Below are positions 1,114 to 20,641 of a stretch of 64,000 bases of DNA, piece after piece. The stretch covers positions 15,189 through 79,188 of the forward strand of contig CAYWKU010000014.1 of NCBI GenBank assembly GCA_964459325.1, given 5' to 3'. Position numbers and translations under genes: made by a program. The notes under the pieces were generated by a model. It was not told the DNA's origin and searched no databases. It saw nothing but the letters and a program-made list of their open reading frames with translations. This DNA is from an uncultured bacterium (GTDB taxonomy: Bacteria; RBG-13-61-14; CAYWKU01). How positions within the stretch are numbered: position 1 is the first letter of the stretch; each line of letters starts with the position of its first letter.

Positions 1114-1866
1114 TTAGAGGAAGTGGCGGTCTATAATGTTCAGTATATCCGAGCTGAAGTTTTCCATCTCTCCCGCAAAACTGCGGGCATGGGCAAGGAA
1201 ATAGTTGTAAGCGACAACCGCCGGTATGGCGGCGGCCAGCCCTGCCGCGGTAGCTATTAGCGCCTCGCTTATGCCTGGCGCCACCACTTCCAGCCCCACG
1301 TCCCCCAGCTCGGCGATGTCCCGAAAGCTGGTCATGATTCCCCAGACGGTTCCGAACAACCCCACGAAGGGCGCGGCGCTGCCGGTGGTGGCCAGAAAGC
1401 TCAGGTAACGCTCCAGGCGCGACCTTTCCCCGGCGTGAGCTCTCCGGAGTGCGCGTTCGACAAGCTCGACACCGCCAAGCTTGTCCGCCAGTCCCTCTTC
1501 CTCCCCTTCTCCACCTGGGTTAGCCTTCTTTATCTTGGTAAGCTCCTGGTATCCGGCCCGAAATACCTGGGCCAGCGGGCTGGAGCTTAATTTCCGGGAA
1601 TTCCTGTATATGGCCTCCAGGCTGTTGGCGCTCCAGAAAACCTCCATGAACCCGGCATTTGCCTTTCCGGCCCTGCGAAACTGAATGTACTTGAGCACGA
1701 TGATGGCCCAGCAAATTACACTGAATCCTACCAGCAGCAGAAGCACGAATTTCACCATCGGCCCGGCCCCGGCCACTATCTCCCACCACGTTAAGCTCTT
1801 ATCCGAAGCCTCGACCGCCGCCTGAACCAGTATCGACAAATAAGTTATATCCACCGCTCCGTTCAT
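1114..1866 (-). CDS. tolQ: TolQ/ExbB (MotA/TolQ/ExbB proton channel)
   Basis: FLATTGSAAPFVGLFGTVWGIM and VAPGISEALIATAAGLAAAIPAV motifs. Upstream of tolR and a tolA-like gene. Confidence 0.9.
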   Translation of the reverse strand: MNGAVDITYLSILVQAAVEASDKSLTWWEIVAGAGPMVKFVLLLLVGFSVICWAIIVLKYIQFRRAGKANAGFMEVFWSANSLEAIYRNSRKLSSSPLAQVFRAGYQELTKIKKANPGGEGEEEGLADKLGGVELVERALRRAHAGERSRLERYLSFLATTGSAAPFVGLFGTVWGIMTSFRDIAELGDVGLEVVAPGISEALIATAAGLAAAIPAVVAYNYFLAHARSFAGEMENFSSDILNIIDRHFL

Positions 1867-12175: not shown

Positions 12176-12853
12176 TTATATTCCGCCGGAGTCGGCGTCA
12201 TCCTCTTCGACCACCTCCGGCCACTTATCGGGTTTCATTATTATAAGTTTTTTCAGGGCCTTTCGTATTAACCCGTACATGTAGGAGGTTTTGACTTCGG
12301 GATTCCTGTACCAGTAATTGAAAGCTCCCATTGTCAACATGCATATCAGCATGGCTGCGTCTTCGGGTTTGCATTCGGTGTTGAAAACACCTTTACTCTG
12401 ACCGTTGGCTACGAGCATGGTAAGAAACCGGATGTAAGAGTTCAAAGTCTGGCCCAGCGATTTAGTCGCTTCCTCACTTTCATGAAAAGTTTCTATCTGC
12501 AATAGAAGATAGGCTCGATTGAGTTCAGGCTCGGTGTTCAATTTTTTCTGAAAATGCTCGAGCAGGGTGCTCAATATGTCGGCTTCATCAACGTCTTCAG
12601 AGGAAACAATTTCGTCAATCATCTGCTGGACGCTACCCGAGACGAGTTTTTTCACCACCATGTCCAGGAGTCCGTCTTTTGTGCCGAAGTACCAGAAGAT
12701 GGCGCTTTTGGCCACGTGCGCTTCTTCGGCAATATCCGCCACGCTGGCGCCGCGGTAACCTCTTTGACTGAACAGGCGGATTGCGGCGTCCAGTATTTTT
12801 TCCCGCGTTAAAGCCGATTTTTTGTTTCTCTGCGCCTCTTTATTTTCCGCCAC
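12176..12853 (-). CDS. TetR/AcrR family transcriptional regulator
   Basis: TREKILDAAIRLFSQRGYRGASVADIAEEAHVAKSAIFWYFGTKDGL. GTG start at 12853 with upstream AAGGAAG. Confidence 0.92.
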   Translation of the reverse strand: MAENKEAQRNKKSALTREKILDAAIRLFSQRGYRGASVADIAEEAHVAKSAIFWYFGTKDGLLDMVVKKLVSGSVQQMIDEIVSSEDVDEADILSTLLEHFQKKLNTEPELNRAYLLLQIETFHESEEATKSLGQTLNSYIRFLTMLVANGQSKGVFNTECKPEDAAMLICMLTMGAFNYWYRNPEVKTSYMYGLIRKALKKLIIMKPDKWPEVVEEDDADSGGI

Positions 12854-13079
12854 CTGGATTACTTCCTTTTTAAGTAGCAATCTAGCTAATTTACCGAGGA
12901 GTTTCAACTCGAAGATGCAAAATGTCAAGTTTTTAACAACTTACTTTATCTGAACTAAGGATTTGTCTCCGCTCATTTTACGAACCGAAAACCCCTTTTA
13001 AACAGGCATCTTGGCAATTCGACTTTTCCATAATATCCTTTTTCTTATCCATGCTAATCGGGCACGGCCCGGGGGGCGG

Positions 13080-13356: not shown

Positions 13357-15348
13357 ATGAAGGTATCGCTGATATTCCCGCCGGACTGGAACGACCTGTG
13401 TATGCCTTACGGCAGTACTCCCTCCATCAAGGCTTATCTCGAAGAGGGCGGAATCGAGGCATCACAATTCGACTTCAACATCGAGGCCTACGAGCGGATA
13501 CTCGAACCGGACAAGCTCCGGCAACTCTGGAAGCAAACCGACTGGAAAAAGGATTACCCCGCTCCCACCCCCGGGTCGCCCGGGCGCAAAGAAGTGGGCA
13601 AAATGCTCGCCGGAAAAGTAGACACCATCGTCGACAACATATCCGAAGCAATCGGTGTATTCCGTAGCTCCGATAAGTTCTATGACCCGGAAAAATACAA
13701 GCATGCCCTGGGAGTTCTGGACGGGGCGATTCTGCTGGTGTCGGCATCGAGCTGGGCGCTGGAAGATTCACTCAAATCGCCCGAAGAGGCGATAAAGGCC
13801 GCTTCCGACCCTTCGGTCAACATATTCTACCCTTACATCGAAGAGCTGTTCAAAGAAAAGCTCGCTTCAAGGTACGACATGGCGGGCCTTAGCGTGGCGT
13901 GGCCGAGGCAAATGATACCGGCCATCGCACTGGCTTACCTGATAAAGAAAAAATATCCGGAAACGCACGTAAGCCTGGGCGGCGCCTACCCCAGCCTGAT
14001 ATTCGAAGCCATCGAAAACTCTCCCGAGTTGTTCGATTACTTCGATTCCGTTTCATTGAGCGAGGGGGAAGTCGCGTCGCTGGGATTGGCGAAAGCCGTC
14101 GGAGAGGGAGAAAGCGTAAGCGAAGTTCCGGGAATTTTGTACAGGCACGGCGGCGAAGTGCACAGAACCAGCCTGCCTGTAATGGAAGACGCCGACGAGC
14201 TTCCGACGCCGGATTTCGACGGCCTGGATTTGAATAAATATCTTTCCCCGGAGCCGGCGCTTCCGGTTTTCAGCTCGAGGGGATGTTTCTGGAGACGATG
14301 CAGCTACTGCCTGAGACCCGACCGGAAAACTTTCAGCCAGCGCAGTCCTCAGCAGGTGGTCAAGGATTTGACAGCGCTTCATCGCCGTTACAAGGCACGC
14401 GCTTTCCATTTTACCGACAACGCCATCCGCACCCGCAGGATGGCGGAAATAGCCGACCTGATTTCGGAGGCCGGGCTTGAAATAAGCTGGACCGCCCGCA
14501 CCCGGTTTTCTCACGAAATGACCTGGGACTGGTGCGACCAGGTTGCCGCCGGAGGATGTGCCCGTATCATTTTCGGAGTAGAAAGCGCCTCCAAGCGCAT
14601 TCTCGACATGATGGACAAGGGTTTTCGCACCGAGGACGTGCCGGAAGCCCTCCAGGGATTATCCAAGGCGGGGATAGATTCCACCCTCTACTTCATAGTG
14701 GGCTTTCCCACCGAAAAGGAAGACGAAGCCCGAAAAACACTTCAGTTCGCCGAGCGGTTAACCGAAAGCCTCACCCCCTACGCCCAATATTACGTAACCC
14801 TTTTCGCCGTCCCCATCGGCAGCATAATTCACCAAAAACCGGATAGTTACGGAATTACTAAGCTGGCGGAGCCTGCCGCGAACGATTTGAGAAACCCCTA
14901 CCTTTACGAGTTCGAAACCGAAGAGGGAATGAGCCGCAAAGAAGCGGTAAAAATATATGGCGAGTTTCTCAGAAAGTTCGATGAGCTTACAAAACATCCT
15001 TACCGCATGCCCCACGACATGCTGATGAGGATGTCGGACAGCGCGGAGGCGGCGGTTTCCGAACCCCGGGCGCGGGTTTTGAAACTGGAGCATATTCCCA
15101 AGTTGGCAGATGATTTAAGGGCGGAAAAGGGGTATTTGTTGAAGGGAAACAAAAAGTTCCGCATTAACGAGCAGATGCGCAAGCTCATGGAACTTTTGGA
15201 CTCCAAAAGAACGGTCAAACAAGTGCTGCACGGGTTGACCAGGCAGGAAGATATCTCCATGCCCGCCGCCTACATCTACGCACAGCAGCTATTCGACGAG
15301 GGCATAATCGAGGTAAGAGCTTCCGAGGAACAAAAGGGCAAGCGGTAA
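13357..15348 (+). CDS. B12-binding radical SAM enzyme with C-terminal PqqD/RRE-like domain
   Basis: N-terminal cobalamin-binding region (PYGSTPSIKAYL...GGAY), SRGCFWRRCSYC (CxxxCxxC), FTDNA, GVESAS, YFIVGFPTE, plus a ~75-aa C-terminal beta/3-helix tail. Confidence 0.88.
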   Translation: MKVSLIFPPDWNDLCMPYGSTPSIKAYLEEGGIEASQFDFNIEAYERILEPDKLRQLWKQTDWKKDYPAPTPGSPGRKEVGKMLAGKVDTIVDNISEAIGVFRSSDKFYDPEKYKHALGVLDGAILLVSASSWALEDSLKSPEEAIKAASDPSVNIFYPYIEELFKEKLASRYDMAGLSVAWPRQMIPAIALAYLIKKKYPETHVSLGGAYPSLIFEAIENSPELFDYFDSVSLSEGEVASLGLAKAVGEGESVSEVPGILYRHGGEVHRTSLPVMEDADELPTPDFDGLDLNKYLSPEPALPVFSSRGCFWRRCSYCLRPDRKTFSQRSPQQVVKDLTALHRRYKARAFHFTDNAIRTRRMAEIADLISEAGLEISWTARTRFSHEMTWDWCDQVAAGGCARIIFGVESASKRILDMMDKGFRTEDVPEALQGLSKAGIDSTLYFIVGFPTEKEDEARKTLQFAERLTESLTPYAQYYVTLFAVPIGSIIHQKPDSYGITKLAEPAANDLRNPYLYEFETEEGMSRKEAVKIYGEFLRKFDELTKHPYRMPHDMLMRMSDSAEAAVSEPRARVLKLEHIPKLADDLRAEKGYLLKGNKKFRINEQMRKLMELLDSKRTVKQVLHGLTRQEDISMPAAYIYAQQLFDEGIIEVRASEEQKGKR

Positions 15349-15664
15349 AACCCTGCACCCACCCGATAACCCGAAAGAAAGTTCAAACCCCGAACCGGAG
15401 TTCCAAATGATGAGTTTCCCGGAAAAATTCCTTTCAAAGGAACTTCCGGGCTGTCTTCAGTTTCGATAAACCGGAGAGATGAAGTTGCCGGGTGTTTGGT
15501 AATTTAGAAGGGGAAACTCGGTAGCACTATTTTTAGATATATGACATCCTGTGGGCGAGATTAAATATTTTTTCTTGAAATGTAACTAAATTAATGCTAA
15601 TCTTTATTAAATTTAAGTATAATATCGCTTAAAAGAAGGGCCGGAGCGCCCGGAAGGTAATTCC

Positions 15665-16321
15665 ATGATTCTGGAGAGGCTTTACGAGTGGTGGCTGCTT
15701 TTCGAAAAGGGCGGCCCCTTGATGTACCTGATATTCCTGTGCTCGGTAACCGCGCTTGCCATAATATTCGAGCGGCTCTGGATGTTGCGCTCATCGAAGG
15801 TTATACCCGACGAGCTTGTCAAACGCGCCGAATCACTGCTTTCAAGCGGGAAATATAGCGAAGCCCGCGCTCTTCTCTCCTCAAGCAACACCTCCATAGC
15901 CCGCGTGCTGCTGGAGGGAATGGAGAGAGCGGATAAAGGCCGGGAAGCCGTGCGGGAAGCCATGGAAGACGCCGGGCGGATAGAGGCCACCCAACTCAAC
16001 CAGTTCGTCAACATGCTGGGGGGCATCGCCGGATTATCCCCCCTGCTGGGCCTTCTGGGAACGGTTATAGGCATGATACAGGCATTTAACAACATAGTGG
16101 AGCATGGAGTGGGCAATCCCGGGGACGTGGCGGGGGGCATTTCCGTGGCGCTTATTACCACTGCCGCAGGCCTCACGGTCGCCATCCCCGCTTTCATCGC
16201 CAACCGTTACTTCGCGGGAAGAGTGGAGAGTCTTCTTGCCAGGATGGAAGAGGTCGGCGTTCGCTTCATGGAGATTATCACCGGCTCCCCTGAAAAAACC
16301 GACCGGGAGGAGGACGGTTGA
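15665..16321 (+). CDS. exbB: MotA/TolQ/ExbB proton channel protein
   Basis: LGGIAGLSPLLGLLGTVIGMIQAF, GGISVALITTAAGLTVAIPA. Confidence 0.88.
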   Translation: MILERLYEWWLLFEKGGPLMYLIFLCSVTALAIIFERLWMLRSSKVIPDELVKRAESLLSSGKYSEARALLSSSNTSIARVLLEGMERADKGREAVREAMEDAGRIEATQLNQFVNMLGGIAGLSPLLGLLGTVIGMIQAFNNIVEHGVGNPGDVAGGISVALITTAAGLTVAIPAFIANRYFAGRVESLLARMEEVGVRFMEIITGSPEKTDREEDG

Positions 16322-16731
16322 GGTTCTCGAGGCAAAAACCGCAACAGGAGTTCCGGATAGACCTGACGTCCCTGATTGACGTGGTGTTTCTTCTCATCAT
16401 TTTCTTCATGGTCACCACAACCTTCCAGGCCCGCTCAGGCATTTCGGTAAAGCTCCCGGAAGCCGATTCCGAAATGCCCGCCGAGGAGTTCAAGCGGGTG
16501 GTCATCAGCTTGCGGGAAGACGGAAACACCTACTACCAGGACGCGCAGATAAGCGAAGAAGGGTTGACCCGCCGACTGGCGGCCGCCGCTGCTTCTGACA
16601 CTAAAACCCTGGTCATAATCAGGGCGGATAAGCACGTGGCTCACGGTCGGGTGGTATCCGTGATGGACGCCGCCCGAAGCGCCGGACTTAACCGACTGGC
16701 CATAGCCACCGTCAAAAGACCGCCGAGATGA
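16318..16731 (+). CDS. exbD: ExbD/TolR family protein
   Basis: IDLTSLIDVVFLLIIFFMVTT, IIRADKHVAHGRVVSVMD; 4-bp overlap with exbB. Confidence 0.9.
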   Translation: MRFSRQKPQQEFRIDLTSLIDVVFLLIIFFMVTTTFQARSGISVKLPEADSEMPAEEFKRVVISLREDGNTYYQDAQISEEGLTRRLAAAAASDTKTLVIIRADKHVAHGRVVSVMDAARSAGLNRLAIATVKRPPR

Positions 16732-16742
16732 GGTGAAATAAC

Positions 16743-17069
16743 ATGCCGCCGAGCCGTTCCAAATCGTCCCGGTTGGAAAAAATTCTGTTAACCACCCTGG
16801 TTATAATTGCCTTTGGCATCGCCGGAGCGGCGGTTGTCGGAAAACACGGACTGTTGACTTACATCAACATGCAGAACAGATACGAGCAAATGCAGGAAGA
16901 ATGCGAGCGACTGCGGGAGGAAAACGAGCGACTCCGGCAGGAAATACAAGCTTTACGAAAAGACCCCGAGGCCATCGAGGAGGTTGCCCGAAAAGAACTT
17001 GGCATGATAAAGCCGGGCGAGGTATTATATAAGTTCAAACCGGAGGATTCGGGCGTCGAGGTGAGATAG
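16743..17069 (+). CDS. ftsB: Septum formation initiator FtsB/DivIC
   Basis: TM helix, GxxG, coiled coil, IEEVARKELGMIKPGEVLY. Confidence 0.88.
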   Translation: MPPSRSKSSRLEKILLTTLVIIAFGIAGAAVVGKHGLLTYINMQNRYEQMQEECERLREENERLRQEIQALRKDPEAIEEVARKELGMIKPGEVLYKFKPEDSGVEVR

Positions 17070-17071
17070 CC

Positions 17072-19222
17072 TTGAGGGACAGCGAAAGCTCCAGTATAAA
17101 CCCGGCTACCATATTAACGGCGGTGGGCCTGATTGCGTCCGCCGCTGTTATTGTGTTTGTCACCAGGGGAGATTATCTCGGGCCGGCGACCCCTGAGTTG
17201 GCGTCCATAATTGCCGCCGGGATACTCGTTTTGTATACGGTAATTACTACCGCCTTTTTTTTCGCCGGTTCCGGCTCTCCATTCCAGTTGTCCATATCCC
17301 TGGCTATAAGTTGGGTGGTCATAGGCCGTGTGGCCATCGATTTTACCGGCGGAATCGCCAGCCCGCTTTACCCGGCGGCTTACGTACTGGCCGGGGTCGC
17401 GGGGGCCTACGCGCCGGCGAGCCTCACGATTCTCGGAATATTCATCTTCGCAGGAATGGAAGGCTCTCAGGCATGGCTGACCGGCCAATGGAACCAATCC
17501 GTATGGAAACTTACCTCCCACACCGCCGGATTGCTGGCGGCGGCGGGCGTCGTGGGCAGCTTTTTCCGCTCGGAAAGGAAGAAGACATCCGAGTTCGAGG
17601 AGGAGCTGGCCGTATACAGGCGAGGCCATGCGGCGTTCAGCGAAAGCGCCGACGAGTTCCGCAGCATCAGGGAGGAAGGGCGCCGGGCACAGCTTCGGGA
17701 AAGCGTGTTAAAACTCCAGGACGCCTTGCATCACATCATGAACGATTTGTACGACATCCTGAAGCCCCATACCATAATTCTTTTCACCCGTGACCCCAAA
17801 ACCAGAAAGATGTGTTTCCGCGACGCCATCAGCGCCACGGAAAACATTAACCGCTCAGCCACCGTCGGCGAGGGCGAGGGCCTGCTGGGGTGGATGTGGA
17901 GGGAGCTGGAATCGCTCAGGCTCACTTCCTACCACCACCCCCCGGAGAACCTTGTCTACTACAATAACGAGGAGCGGGTGCAGAGTCTGCTGGCCGTACC
18001 GGTCATCAGGAACAGCACCGGCGAAGCCGAAGGGCTCCTGGTGGCGGACAGCCTCCAGGAAGGTTACTTCACCCCGGAGGACGAGAGGCTGATATGGCTA
18101 TCGGCACGGCAGGTGATGCAGGAGCTGGAGACCGCCGAGCAGAGGCGCCGGGAAGTCAACGAGGCCCGCATAAGCCATGCTTTATATAAAGTGAGCGACG
18201 CGCTCAACTCCTCAATAGACCTCGACGAGGTATTGGACGCCACCATGGCGTGTGTAACCAGGATTGCCGACGCCGACTTGGTGGCTCTCTCGCTTTATGA
18301 CAGGCATCAGTCGAACAGTTACGTGGCCAGGGCCACCGGCGGCCTTGCGGACAGCTTCAAGGGAAAGAGATTCAACCCCGACGAAAGCCTGGTGGGATGG
18401 GTTACCACCCCCGAACAATACCTGTATTATCCGGACTTCAAGAGCCGGAAGGTGCAGAAACCGGTCTTCGGTAAGAACTTCCCCTCCATCAAGAAGAACA
18501 TAGGCACCTTCTTCTGCTATCCCCTGGTTTCGGGCAGTGATTTCCTCGGCTCGATTACAGTCATTTTCCGGGAGGAAGGGGCAATCAACGACTACGAAAG
18601 AAACGCCCTCAACACCACCGCCCGAATGGCGGCCACCAGCATAGCCAACGCCAACCTTCACCGCAGGGTGGAACAACTGGCCACCACGGACGGCCTCACG
18701 GGGCTTCACAATCACCGGTACTTCCAGGAGCGGCTGTCCGAGCGAATCGAAGAAGCCCGCCGCCATCCCACTCATCATACCCTGCTGCTTCTGGACATAG
18801 ACCACTTCAAGCAGGTAAACGACAAGTACGGCCACCCGGTCGGGGACGAGGTGCTCAGGTCTCTGGCCGGGCTGTTTAAATCGAGCATACGCAACGTGGA
18901 CCTGGCCGCCAGGTACGGCGGGGAGGAGTTTGTACTGCTTCTTGCCAATACCCGCCGGGAGGGGGCGATTAAACTGGCCAACAGGATAAGAAAAGCGGCT
19001 TCCAGGCTGAAATTCGAGACCGAGAATAAGACATTCAAGGTTACCATAAGCATGGGCATAACCACCTTTCCCGAAGACGCCAAGGGCAAATCCTCCCTGA
19101 TAGAAAGGGCCGACCAGGCGCTTTATTACGCAAAGGAAAACGGCCGCAACCAGGTAGTGCTTTACCACGATATAAGGGACGAAGCAGAATCGGATTCAAA
19201 CCTGCCGGCGGAACGCTACTAA
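17072..19222 (+). CDS. Membrane-anchored GAF-GAF-GGDEF diguanylate cyclase
   Basis: Several N-terminal TM helices, two GAF-like regions, TDGLTGLHNHRYF, LLLDIDHFKQVND, I-site RNVD, active site RYGGEEF. Confidence 0.93.
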   Translation: MRDSESSSINPATILTAVGLIASAAVIVFVTRGDYLGPATPELASIIAAGILVLYTVITTAFFFAGSGSPFQLSISLAISWVVIGRVAIDFTGGIASPLYPAAYVLAGVAGAYAPASLTILGIFIFAGMEGSQAWLTGQWNQSVWKLTSHTAGLLAAAGVVGSFFRSERKKTSEFEEELAVYRRGHAAFSESADEFRSIREEGRRAQLRESVLKLQDALHHIMNDLYDILKPHTIILFTRDPKTRKMCFRDAISATENINRSATVGEGEGLLGWMWRELESLRLTSYHHPPENLVYYNNEERVQSLLAVPVIRNSTGEAEGLLVADSLQEGYFTPEDERLIWLSARQVMQELETAEQRRREVNEARISHALYKVSDALNSSIDLDEVLDATMACVTRIADADLVALSLYDRHQSNSYVARATGGLADSFKGKRFNPDESLVGWVTTPEQYLYYPDFKSRKVQKPVFGKNFPSIKKNIGTFFCYPLVSGSDFLGSITVIFREEGAINDYERNALNTTARMAATSIANANLHRRVEQLATTDGLTGLHNHRYFQERLSERIEEARRHPTHHTLLLLDIDHFKQVNDKYGHPVGDEVLRSLAGLFKSSIRNVDLAARYGGEEFVLLLANTRREGAIKLANRIRKAASRLKFETENKTFKVTISMGITTFPEDAKGKSSLIERADQALYYAKENGRNQVVLYHDIRDEAESDSNLPAERY

Positions 19223-19516
19223 GAGACCACTGAATACATCCTTTAATTCATCAAGCTGAAAACACCAGCTATATCAGATAGTTACATAAAATAACCGCCC
19301 TGAAATAATACTGCAAGAATGCAAACACGTTGCTGATTATATGTTTGTGGCGTAAGCGCCTCAGCTTCGGATAATACTATTGAAAAATTGCAACAGTTTT
19401 CTAAGAAAATCGTAAAATATCCCCCGGAACCCCGAGCACTTTCAGAATATCGAAATACACTGAATTTTGCGGGATTGAAGTCGAGAAATCGTTTTCAATC
19501 CCGCTTTTTTAGCTTG

Positions 19517-19529
19517 TAACTTACTGATA
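19517..19529 (-). promoter_or_regulatory. IHF consensus site upstream of lpxC
   Basis: Minus strand TATCAGTAAGTTA matches WATCARNNNNTTR, ~95 bp upstream of a sigma54-like promoter. Confidence 0.45.
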
Positions 19530-19624
19530 TTATTAAACAATCCGGGAATGTAAGGTATTTTTCATCCATTAGAACGTATATACCGACAAAATTTCAAGAA
19601 AATCGCCCGACAGCTGGAGCCACC

Positions 19625-19640
19625 CGGCACGGCACTTGCT
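19625..19640 (+). promoter_or_regulatory. sigma54 (-24/-12) promoter candidate for lpxC
   Basis: CGGCACGGCACTTGCT matches YGGCACG-N4-TTGCW with exact spacing. Confidence 0.6.
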
Positions 19641-19708
19641 AACCAAATTCCCAAGGATTTTTGTGATAACACAAACCCGTTTGGGTGCGTTTTTTAAAAG
19701 AGAGGTAT

Positions 19709-20641
19709 GTGAACTTGTACAGACAACGAACCGTCAAGAACGCTGTAAGCTGCACGGGGATAGGGTTACACAACGGCAGGCTGGTGAAATTGACCATCAA
19801 GCCGGCCCCCTTTGACCACGGCATAGTATTCGAGCGCGTCGACCTTCCGGGCAGACCCCGTCTCAAGGCCGATTTCAACCTCATAGACGACGCCGACCAT
19901 GCGACAAGCCTGGGTTCCAACGGTACCCGGGTGGGCACCGTCGAGCATTTGCTTTCGGCGTTTTATGGCATGGGAATAGACAACGCTTTGGTGGAAATCA
20001 ACGACGACGAAGTGCCAATCATGGACGGCAGCAGCGCGCCTTTCATATTCCTGTTGAAAAACGCCGGAATACGGGTATTGCCCCGGAGCAAGAAATTTTA
20101 CGTGGTGACCGAGAAATTCTCCGTCAGCGACGGCGACAGGCGTATCGAAGTAAGGCCGGCCTCCAAAATGAAAATGTCCTTCACCATCGATTTCGCTCAC
20201 CCCCTTATCGAGACGCAGAACTATCGGTTTGATTTCAGCGCGAGGGATTTCGAGCGGGAGATAAGCAGGGCCCGCACATTCGGATTTCTTCACGAAGTGG
20301 AATATCTCAAAAAGCGCGGACTGGCCCGGGGAGGCAGCCTGAATAATGCAGTCGTGATAGGCCGTTTCAGGGTGCTGAACGACGACGGACTGCGTTTCCC
20401 GGACGAATTTGTGCGGCACAAGATACTCGACCAGTTGGGGGACATCTCTCTGCTGGGCGGACCGTTGCTGGCCGATATAAAGTCCCACAAAAGCGGACAT
20501 GCTCTCAACCACGCGATGGTGGGCAAGCTTGCCGAAAACCCGGAATTGGTAAAAGTGGTAAGATACGACGAGGATTCCGAAGCCGCCAGGCTCCACGAAG
20601 CGCTGCCCGCGTGGAACCTGCCGGAATGGGCAGCCACCTGA
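19709..20641 (+). CDS. lpxC: UDP-3-O-acyl-GlcNAc deacetylase
   Basis: RQRTVKN...GIGLHNG, TVEHLLSA, PIMDGSS, HKILDQLGDISL, KSGHALN. GTG 19709 after GAGG. Confidence 0.96.
   Translation: MNLYRQRTVKNAVSCTGIGLHNGRLVKLTIKPAPFDHGIVFERVDLPGRPRLKADFNLIDDADHATSLGSNGTRVGTVEHLLSAFYGMGIDNALVEINDDEVPIMDGSSAPFIFLLKNAGIRVLPRSKKFYVVTEKFSVSDGDRRIEVRPASKMKMSFTIDFAHPLIETQNYRFDFSARDFEREISRARTFGFLHEVEYLKKRGLARGGSLNNAVVIGRFRVLNDDGLRFPDEFVRHKILDQLGDISLLGGPLLADIKSHKSGHALNHAMVGKLAENPELVKVVRYDEDSEAARLHEALPAWNLPEWAAT

Follow-up and report, generated by a model that had tools for sequence, protein, structure and literature searches.

The four neighbouring genes exbB, exbD, ftsB and a diguanylate cyclase gene, found in a bacterium from a small uncultured phylum, are probably two functional pairs on one string, a reading to which we give a probability of about 0.6. 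One pair is ftsB with a cyclase of the same type as DmxA of Myxococcus xanthus, the other is exbB-exbD, which would encode the motor of an ordinary TonB system.

Layout, transcription and conservation of the gene string

The four genes lie on the forward strand of the window, the whole stretch of 64,000 nucleotides that was analysed. The exbB gene (15665-16321) encodes a 218 residue proton-channel subunit of the MotA/TolQ/ExbB family with three hydrophobic segments, and exbD (16318-16731), which starts with TTG, a 137 residue ExbD/TolR subunit with a single transmembrane helix that carries Asp21. They are followed by ftsB (16743-17069), encoding a bitopic divisome protein of 108 residues with an N-terminal transmembrane helix and a coiled coil, and by the gene of the DmxA-like diguanylate cyclase, 716 residues (17072-19222). 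The initial annotation described the genes as tightly packed, and the open reading frame coordinates agree exactly with the spacing it gave, a 4-bp TTGA overlap between exbB and exbD and gaps of 11 bp between exbD and ftsB and 2 bp between ftsB and the cyclase gene.

The 316 nt in front of exbB (15349-15664, forward strand) are AT-rich and probably contain the promoter of the four genes, and a pattern scan found a sigma-70-like site at 15541-15569. Pattern scanning revealed no strong terminator between the four genes, the single terminator-like hairpin being located within the start of the cyclase reading frame. An intrinsic terminator is found on the same strand at 19469-19510, 247 nt past the cyclase stop codon, with a 12-bp G+C-rich stem followed by U6. 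Its RNA fold of -28.6 kcal/mol (z -5.2) was equalled in stability by 0 of 200 shuffles, and it is the probable end of the transcription unit. Judged from these signals, ftsB and the cyclase gene are probably co-transcribed with the housekeeping genes of a TonB motor. Rfam gave no match within 15200-19800. A weak Fur-box-like 19-mer (14/19) begins near 15590, upstream of exbB. Sites of that quality number 120 across the genome, and neither a Fur box nor any other iron-regulation signal is conserved upstream of the exbB orthologues, and for these reasons the site was discarded as evidence that exbB is regulated by iron.

A synteny survey, one of the checks that the initial annotation had proposed, showed that relatives keep all four genes in this order, with the cyclases 24-67% identical and with differing flanks. 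The order thus recurs between different flanks and is not a chance arrangement. The survey covered 13 genomes (13 species) of the host's phylum and a random sample of 388 genomes from other lineages, coded here as families. The exbBD genes are linked to ftsB in 11 of the 13 phylum genomes and also in two unrelated families outside the phylum, f35 and f162, and several genomes show a 4-nt overlap of exbD with ftsB. Within the phylum, family f3 has kept this linkage although the cyclase is absent, and in genus g3 exbBD stand apart from ftsB, both being retained. The complete four-gene string is present in a genome of f162 (G169, 97% complete), and no Plug-domain receptor could be detected in that genome.

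The cyclase and its pairing with ftsB

The assignment of ftsB is based on a match of its product to the DivIC family (PF04977, 2.6e-23, 82 bits) and on 39% identity to FtsB of M. xanthus, even if the score on the equivalog model NF002058 is under the cut-off, 63.9 as compared to 101. It is the top DivIC match genome-wide, and the runner-up is ftsL, situated between rsmH and ftsI in the dcw cluster on contig C6. Apart from that ftsL, it is the sole gene for a bitopic protein of the DivIC family.

The cyclase had been described as a TM-GAF-GAF-GGEEF protein with an intact RxxD I-site, and on this Pfam, the motif positions and an AF2 model (mean pLDDT 80.9) all agree. A membrane domain of six helices (residues 11-167, nt 17102-17572) is followed by two GAF domains, at residues 215-352 (nt 17714-18127) and 383-526 (nt 18218-18649), and a GGDEF domain at 537-694 (nt 18680-19153; Pfam 7.9e-52). 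The I-site RNVD (607-610, nt 18890-18901) lies five residues ahead of the A-site GGEEF (616-620, nt 18917-18931), and both are invariant among 18 relatives. In the model the six N-terminal helices, at 11-31, 43-65, 71-91, 102-113, 116-136 and from 140 onward, lead into GAF, helix, GAF, helix and GGDEF. The best Foldseek matches are cyclases built as sensor, coiled coil and GGDEF, for example IsPadC (PDB 5llw, 6et7). The predicted cytoplasmic part, with a long helix after each GAF, matches cyclases of this kind with solved structures, IsPadC, PleD and WspR; they are dimeric and their helical linkers set the catalytic competence. Their input comes from a phytochrome or receiver domain, whereas here it is the six-helix membrane domain and the GAFs. 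Polar residues of the membrane domain are conserved in relatives of the cyclase (Pro101, Glu130, His150 and Glu168-Arg169), which suggests that the domain does more than anchor the protein.

Word-indexed protein searches did not reach Myxococcus, their matches being confined to close relatives from metagenomes and to GAF kinases that are unrelated, and the M. xanthus locus was retrieved via a primer sequence in the supplement of the DmxA paper. In M. xanthus, ftsB and dmxA (MXAN_3705) form an operon (Perez-Burgos et al. 2024, PMC11255338), in agreement with the initial annotation. DmxA has an N-terminal membrane domain of six helices, which by itself is both required and sufficient to bring the protein to the septum (PMC11255338). 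In Myxococcales the c-di-GMP burst of the ftsB-dmxA system at cytokinesis makes the daughter cells alike. BLASTP aligned the cyclase to DmxA with 31% identity over 617 residues (E 3e-80), collinearly from the membrane domain through to the end of GGDEF. With DmxA as query against the host genome the cyclase is the best match, 262 bits as compared to 166 for the next, and with the cyclase as query against two Myxococcus genomes dmxA is on top in both, 274 and 271 bits, the next being at 167-168. The two are thus reciprocal best matches by a clear margin, and they have the same build: 722 residues in DmxA and 716 here, six transmembrane helices, two GAFs, a GGEEF A-site and an RxxD I-site. Together with the position directly after ftsB this bears out the earlier description of the cyclase as DmxA-like.

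The membrane domain is the least conserved part and has diverged strongly from that of DmxA. The alignment of the two proteins extends to residue 99 by BLASTP and to residue 19 by HMMER. Still, the motif TGGxxSxLYP and His150 are common to the cyclase, DmxA and most relatives, LYP appearing as LYP/LFP when the two membrane domains are compared, and where the relatives have GLE, DmxA has YD. A search with the membrane domain only, among 1.84 billion proteins, gave just 5 weak relatives, too few to estimate the size of the family.

In both organisms the cyclase follows directly 3' of ftsB with starts and stops nearly touching or overlapping; here the gap is 2 nt. The overlap is 4 nt in M. xanthus and in the genomes G002, G004, G008, G010 and L016, and 1 nt in G009. 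The neighbourhood differs upstream, with genes of the fur family and for a redoxin in M. xanthus, where exbBD are not beside ftsB-dmxA, and exbB-exbD here. The pair was observed in 9 of the 13 phylum genomes and, outside the phylum, in at least 8 genomes of the 388-genome sample, 8 of about 17 DmxA-like matches from other lineages being paired in this way. By gene order and homology it is a known module, now in a new phylum. In family f3 a 147 residue membrane protein follows ftsB; it was considered as a stand-alone version of the membrane domain of the cyclase, and rejected at an hhalign probability of 0.3%.

By analogy, the best reading of the cyclase is a DmxA-type enzyme that is coupled to division together with FtsB. 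The septal localisation, the cytokinetic burst and the motility phenotype are those of M. xanthus only, whose DmxA is 31% identical to the cyclase. It is conceivable that it shares the ancestry and position of DmxA but works as a general cyclase sensing through its membrane and GAF domains, the adjacency to ftsB being a remnant, and that the four genes are unrelated housekeeping genes sharing a promoter. The low identity, the divergence of the membrane domain and its few relatives would fit this, as would the observations that outside the phylum ftsB is missing upstream of roughly half the DmxA-like proteins and that family f3 has lost the cyclase and kept ftsB. Mixed housekeeping operons around ftsB are also common, ftsB-ispD-ispF of Escherichia coli being one example. 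On the other hand, the junction with a 4-nt overlap has been kept in at least three unrelated lineages, the phylum, Myxococcaceae and f162, the polar residues of the membrane domain are conserved, and in M. xanthus that domain suffices for recruitment to the septum (PMC11255338). We regard an uncoupled cyclase as rather unlikely.

The ExbB-ExbD motor and its probable partner

Pfam identifies both motor subunits (ExbB, PF01618 MotA_ExbB, 1.5e-32; ExbD, PF02472, 1e-33). As in the ExbB-ExbD-TonB system of the E. coli type, ExbB has three hydrophobic segments and ExbD one transmembrane helix with a conserved Asp. The ExbD sequence contains LTSLIDVVFLLIIFF; its transmembrane segment is found at residues 14-32, and Asp21 lies in LIDVVF. 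Against the NCBIfam cut-offs, exbB reaches 92.6 of 221 on tolQ and 56.9 of 206.2 on exbB, and exbD 63.5 of 152.95 on ExbD_1 and 74.6 of 127.3 on tolR, all of which are missed with a slight preference for tolQ/tolR. The equivalog models for ExbB and ExbD are built mainly on proteobacterial sequences.

The separate tolQRA locus that had been noted at 1-1866 is real. The reading frame at 1114-1866 on the reverse strand scores 231 bits on TIGR02796 tolQ (cut-off 221), with tolR, a tolA-like gene and tolB coming next. Tol-Pal motors belong to the same proton-driven family and have a known role at the division site. The exbBD genes do not fit the Tol-Pal pattern; they score below the TolQ and TolR cut-offs, they have no tolA, tolB or pal adjoining, and ExbB is only distantly related to the TolQ of the complete, separate cluster, which occupies 1-1866 of the window and continues upstream of it.

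No tonB or tolA follows exbD within the window, and to this extent the claim that the motor lacks a TonB/TolA partner stands. It does not hold for the genome, where a canonical orphan TonB is encoded on contig C3 (P0065, TonB_C 62.9 bits), with the SxxxH motif LSVIIH and a spacer rich in Pro, Lys and Glu. Its gene adjoins that of a TonB-dependent receptor and has no exbBD nearby. The genome contains three Plug-domain receptors, none with an ExbBD of its own, and just two genes of the MotA/ExbB family, tolQ and the exbB described here, which leaves TonB and the receptors with no other motor. Plug-domain receptors were found in 13 of the 13 phylum genomes, 7 of which hold only TolQ and the ftsB-linked ExbB. 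Outside the phylum, the closest ExbB relatives not linked to ftsB are mostly encoded in exbB-exbD-tonB operons. Nine downstream genes of the next-closest relatives (41-47% identity) were tested with Pfam, and TonB_C was identified in all nine, reaching the cut-off in eight; an SxxxH transmembrane helix is likewise present in eight. In eight exbB-exbD-tonB loci ftsB was never found after tonB. In a tree, ExbB is placed far from the TolQ of the host, in the company of ExbBs whose genes precede tonB or ftsB. With 3-5 changes needed for the linkage to ftsB on an unresolved backbone, the tree does not decide for or against a single origin.

The inventory of motors, TonB and receptors, and the TonB_C neighbours of the relatives, are why the name orphan motor, given in the initial annotation, is not supported. 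We infer instead a pairing with an ordinary TonB, an outcome that the annotation itself had named as speaking against its proposal, and exbBD are most likely the cell's ordinary TonB energiser. The overlap of exbB and exbD is also as in exbB-exbD-tonB systems. What differs is that tonB is on another contig with ftsB filling the slot after exbD, that the proteins are below the equivalog cut-offs, and that no iron signal was found upstream; in known ExbBD systems linkage to tonB is common, not universal. If the pairing with TonB holds, the locus would also show that calling a motor orphan from one window requires a genome-wide census of TonB and receptors.

Two other readings of the motor can be considered. 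ExbBD may be a dedicated or dual-use, proton-driven divisome motor, in which TonB/TolA is replaced by FtsB or by the six membrane helices of the cyclase and the proton flow is coupled to activation of FtsQLB, to constriction of the envelope or to switching on the cyclase. In its favour, ftsB occupies the exact slot that tonB has where the closest ExbBD relatives are encoded, the linkage is retained in two other families and in 11 of 13 phylum genomes, some of which lack the cyclase, with overlapping exbD and ftsB in several genomes, and G169 has the string with no detectable TonB-dependent receptor. The literature that was searched contains no link between ExbBD and FtsB. TonB and TolA engage their motors via the SxxxH motif, but this motif is absent from the transmembrane helix of FtsB while the TonB of the genome has it, and a divisome motor would leave TonB and three receptors with no dedicated motor. 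Furthermore, genus g3 has split exbBD from ftsB and kept both, M. xanthus runs its DmxA programme with no adjoining exbBD, the ftsB-linked ExbBs are not resolved as one clade in the tree, and synteny is the entire support for a mechanical link between ExbBD and the divisome. We find this explanation unlikely. It is similarly doubtful that in deep lineages (the 13-species phylum, f35 and f162) the proton motive force is coupled directly to the late divisome via ExbBD; if true, the target of the motor would be FtsB or else the membrane domain of the cyclase, and division, energisation of the envelope and the c-di-GMP burst would be one machine.

The other reading is that ExbBD is a second Tol-like motor, serving not TonB but the additional TonB_C-like protein that the Tol cluster encodes, or the constriction of the outer membrane. 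The Tol cluster does have two TonB_C-like transducers (the TolA-like protein and a 236 residue DUF4398 protein) alongside a single TolQR, Tol-Pal acts at the division site, and the NCBIfam tolQ/tolR scores exceed those of exbB/exbD. Both scores are nevertheless far under the cut-offs, the TolQ of the host does not reach E 1e-25 against ExbB and forms a long outgroup branch in the tree, the operons of the closest ExbB relatives do not continue into tolB-pal, and again TonB would be left without a motor, which makes a Tol-like motor very improbable.

A proposed mechanism

In the preferred reading of two functional pairs, FtsB joins the late divisome and, by analogy with DmxA, the six-helix membrane domain of the cyclase would recruit the enzyme to the septum. 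There it would dimerise via the helices linking its GAFs and produce c-di-GMP briefly and locally during cytokinesis, a burst that may be read by the many PilZ proteins of the genome (21 hits). The nearly touching stop and start, 2 nt apart here and overlapping by 4 nt in Myxococcus and most relatives, would couple the synthesis of the cyclase to that of FtsB. ExbB-ExbD, the sole motor of this type outside Tol, would energise the unlinked TonB and the three receptors of the outer membrane. That exbBD precede ftsB would reflect a gene order inherited from long ago, probably with a common transcript, and does not show that the motor works on the divisome.

Some observations count against this explanation. 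The adjacency of exbBD and ftsB is kept more than simple inheritance predicts (11 of 13 phylum genomes, including f3 with no cyclase, and the unrelated f35 and f162), the string of G169 occurs with no detectable Plug-domain receptor, and ExbB and ExbD miss the equivalog cut-offs, slightly favour tolQ/tolR and have no conserved iron signal upstream. The recurrent adjacency is absent from the literature searched, which raises the testable question whether septal functions extend beyond Tol-Pal to motors of the ExbBD type.

To date, Myxococcales are the only group from which the ftsB-dmxA module has been described. Here a clear DmxA ortholog is still joined to ftsB in a different and very small phylum (13 species genomes), unrelated and uncultured, and the pair occurs in at least seven other families of the random genome sample, which suggests that a division-timed pulse of c-di-GMP may be a widespread bacterial device, beyond the myxobacteria.

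The four-gene string and its neighbours

The four open reading frames and the spacing described in the initial annotation all match, with every gene on the forward strand. The string starts with exbB (15665-16321, Pfam MotA_ExbB 1.5e-32), which is preceded by an AT-rich gap of 316 nt, and continues with exbD (16318-16731, Pfam ExbD 1e-33), which has a TTG start and a 4-bp overlap with the TGA stop of exbB. After an 11-bp gap follows ftsB (16743-17069, Pfam DivIC 2.6e-23), and after another 2 bp the 716-aa cyclase (17072-19222, two GAF stretches and GGDEF 7.9e-52 in Pfam). A strong intrinsic terminator (19469-19510, z -5.2) is situated 247 nt past the cyclase stop, and in the ~247 nt of non-coding DNA between them (19223-19468) there was no ORF and no Rfam match. 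A hairpin with a 14-bp stem (17114-17151, forward strand, -34.9 kcal/mol, z -3.9) and, after it, a U-rich stretch fall within the initial 80 nt of the cyclase ORF; such a structure could reduce cyclase expression relative to ftsB, or it may be no more than a by-product of the sequence that encodes TM helix 1.

Downstream of the string is lpxC (19685-20641, forward strand, PF03331 3.2e-104), and in G001, a genome of the same family as the host, the cyclase is likewise followed by the start of an LpxC-like ORF. Just upstream is a 663-aa B12-binding radical SAM protein (13357-15348, forward strand), which resembles RiPP C-methyltransferases at a score below the cut-off (TIGR03975, 139.7 bits), and a TetR regulator is found at 12176-12928 on the reverse strand.

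Kinship of the cyclase with DmxA

The AlphaFold2 model of the cyclase (mean pLDDT 80.9) has six N-terminal helices, the sixth continuing into a long cytoplasmic helix, and then GAF1, a long helix, GAF2, another long helix and the GGDEF domain. In the PDB, Foldseek matched it best to IsPadC and other dimeric cyclases of the sensor-coiled-coil-GGDEF type. The motifs RNVD (607-610) and GGEEF (616-620) are each invariant across 18 relatives. The Myxococcus xanthus diguanylate cyclase DmxA is 722 aa long and consists of a membrane domain (TMD) of six helices, a pair of GAF domains and a GGDEF domain whose I-site is described as low-affinity; the TMD is required, and by itself suffices, to bring the protein to the divisome (PMC11255338). 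The M. xanthus locus was retrieved by a contig search with a primer sequence from the supplement of the same paper (PMC11255338).

The two proteins are 31% identical across 617 residues (E 3e-80), in a collinear alignment reaching from TM helix 4 as far as the GGDEF domain's end, and the HMMER alignment to the dmxA product starts at residue 19. When DmxA was searched against the host genome, the top match was the cyclase of the window, 262 bits as compared to 166 for the runner-up, and in the opposite direction dmxA was the top match in two Myxococcus genomes, 274 and 271 bits as compared to 167-168. The FtsB proteins of the window and of M. xanthus are 39% identical. In a multiple alignment the TMD is the most diverged part of the cyclase among its relatives, and a search with the TMD only against 1.84 billion proteins gave just five weak matches, all in proteins of 663-760 aa. 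The cyclase has the motif TGGxxSxLYP and a His that opens TM6 in common with DmxA and most relatives; at the TMD position where most relatives have GLE, DmxA reads YD. The cyclase is assigned to the DmxA family, in line with the initial annotation: the best matches are reciprocal, the alignment is collinear, the architecture is the same, and the gene lies directly after ftsB in both organisms.

Conservation of the two junctions

The phylum of the host comprises just 13 species genomes, all of one class, in five coded families. A DmxA-like cyclase is present in nine of them, in every case with ftsB immediately before it, and absent from family f3; exbB-exbD lies just 5' of ftsB in 11/13, f3 included. 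Genus g3 is the exception, keeping ftsB and the cyclase together with the orthologous exbBD alone at another site. A metagenomic relative (49-54% cyclase identity) has the identical four genes in wholly different flanks. In G006 exbD and ftsB are separated by an ORF of 491 aa in the opposite orientation (L063:1376-2851, reverse strand), and both halves of the string are retained. In f3 a conserved 147-aa multi-TM protein replaces the cyclase after ftsB, with a 4-nt overlap (L067:1366-1809, forward strand, and L065:2612-3055, reverse strand). This protein gave a weak match to SxtJ (PF19588), and kinship with the TMD of the cyclase was ruled out, the two being unrelated.

In a sample of about 388 genomes from outside the phylum, DmxA-like proteins with a match covering the TMD occur in about 17, eight of these with ftsB directly before the cyclase, including a 9-Mb Myxococcus-like genome. 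The complete string occurs in two genomes of family f162, and the three nearest ExbB relatives beyond the phylum (family f35, 48-50% identity) are encoded in exbB-exbD-ftsB without the cyclase. As a result of this recurrence in the phylum, f35, f162 and other sampled genomes, the exbD-ftsB and ftsB-cyclase junctions are both conserved well above chance in more than one lineage. In M. xanthus AM003 ftsB and dmxA overlap by 4 nt and exbBD was not found beside them; directly before ftsB, in the slot that exbB-exbD takes in the phylum, come a Fur-family regulator gene and then a redoxin gene (L023:3099-4138). In the literature searched we found the ftsB-cyclase link only in the DmxA paper (PMC11255338) and its preprint, and the ExbBD-FtsB link in none.

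The ExbBD motor and a proposed mechanism

Inside the window the motor has no TonB partner, as the initial annotation noted, but genome-wide this does not hold. A tonB unit is found elsewhere in the genome, on contig C3 (L019:8365-12399, reverse strand), where the gene for a TonB of 238 aa (P0065) is grouped with those for a TonB-dependent receptor and a 384-aa lipoprotein. The membrane helix of this TonB carries the canonical SxxxH motif as LSVIIH, and the protein also has a spacer rich in Pro, Lys and Glu and a TonB_C domain. exbBD was not found beside this tonB. There are three Plug-domain receptors in the genome, and at least one in 13/13 of the phylum, but only two MotA/ExbB-family genes, those of TolQ and the ExbB of the string, which are the sole motors in 7/13 phylum genomes. 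Next to the tonB unit is a methylmalonyl-CoA mutase, which hints at cobalamin uptake.

The economical reading of this genome census is that exbB-exbD energises the TonB of the cell. Downstream of the next-closest ExbB relatives beyond the phylum (41-47% identity), nine of nine genes tested match TonB_C in Pfam, eight of them reaching the cut-off, and the SxxxH helix is present in eight of the nine. In the ExbB tree, the ExbB of the string is far from its own TolQ and among ExbBs followed by tonB or ftsB, the poor backbone resolution being compatible with one or several origins of the ftsB linkage. Against this reading count the striking persistence of the exbBD-ftsB adjacency, the lack of a detected receptor in the f162 genome G169, and the lack of a conserved iron-regulation signal upstream of exbB. 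A real coupling of ExbBD to the divisome would fit the adjacency, but the SxxxH motif was not found in the TM helix of FtsB, and we consider such a coupling unlikely. Also counted against TonB are the NCBIfam scores of ExbB and ExbD, which are below threshold with a slight lean to tolQ/tolR; a Tol-like role, set beside the distance from TolQ in the tree, is the least probable of the alternatives.

What the analysis establishes is which genes are present and in what order, their orthology, and which motors, TonB and receptors the genome has. The whole reading, to which we give a probability of about 0.6, is a DmxA-type, division-coupled cyclase with FtsB, and ExbBD as a TonB motor transcribed alongside. 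By analogy with M. xanthus, FtsB would join the late divisome, and the TMD would draw the cyclase there, with dimerisation via the GAF-linker helices. The cyclase would then make a brief c-di-GMP pulse at cytokinesis, possibly capped by a low-affinity I-site as described for DmxA. The host genome (3.8 Mb) has 21 PilZ-domain matches as compared to about six GGDEF-domain genes, an unusually receiver-rich c-di-GMP network, and the PilZ proteins could be ample receivers for the pulse. ExbBD would power TonB, and its place ahead of ftsB would mean that envelope functions are transcribed together, probably constitutively. That the cyclase acts without division coupling in this organism is rather improbable, marginally more so than the divisome-coupled motor.

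The tolQRA locus annotated at 1-1866 was confirmed: its ORF at 1114-1866 (reverse strand) scores above the TolQ equivalog cut-off, 231 as compared to 221 bits. After tolQ follow tolR, a tolA-like gene, a TonB_C-like gene and tolB. The TonB_C-like gene, just upstream of the window on the same contig, C14 (L018:14120-14830, reverse strand), encodes 236 aa with DUF4398 and a weak TonB_C match and is situated between the tolA-like gene and tolB, and thus one TolQR faces two TonB_C-type transducers.
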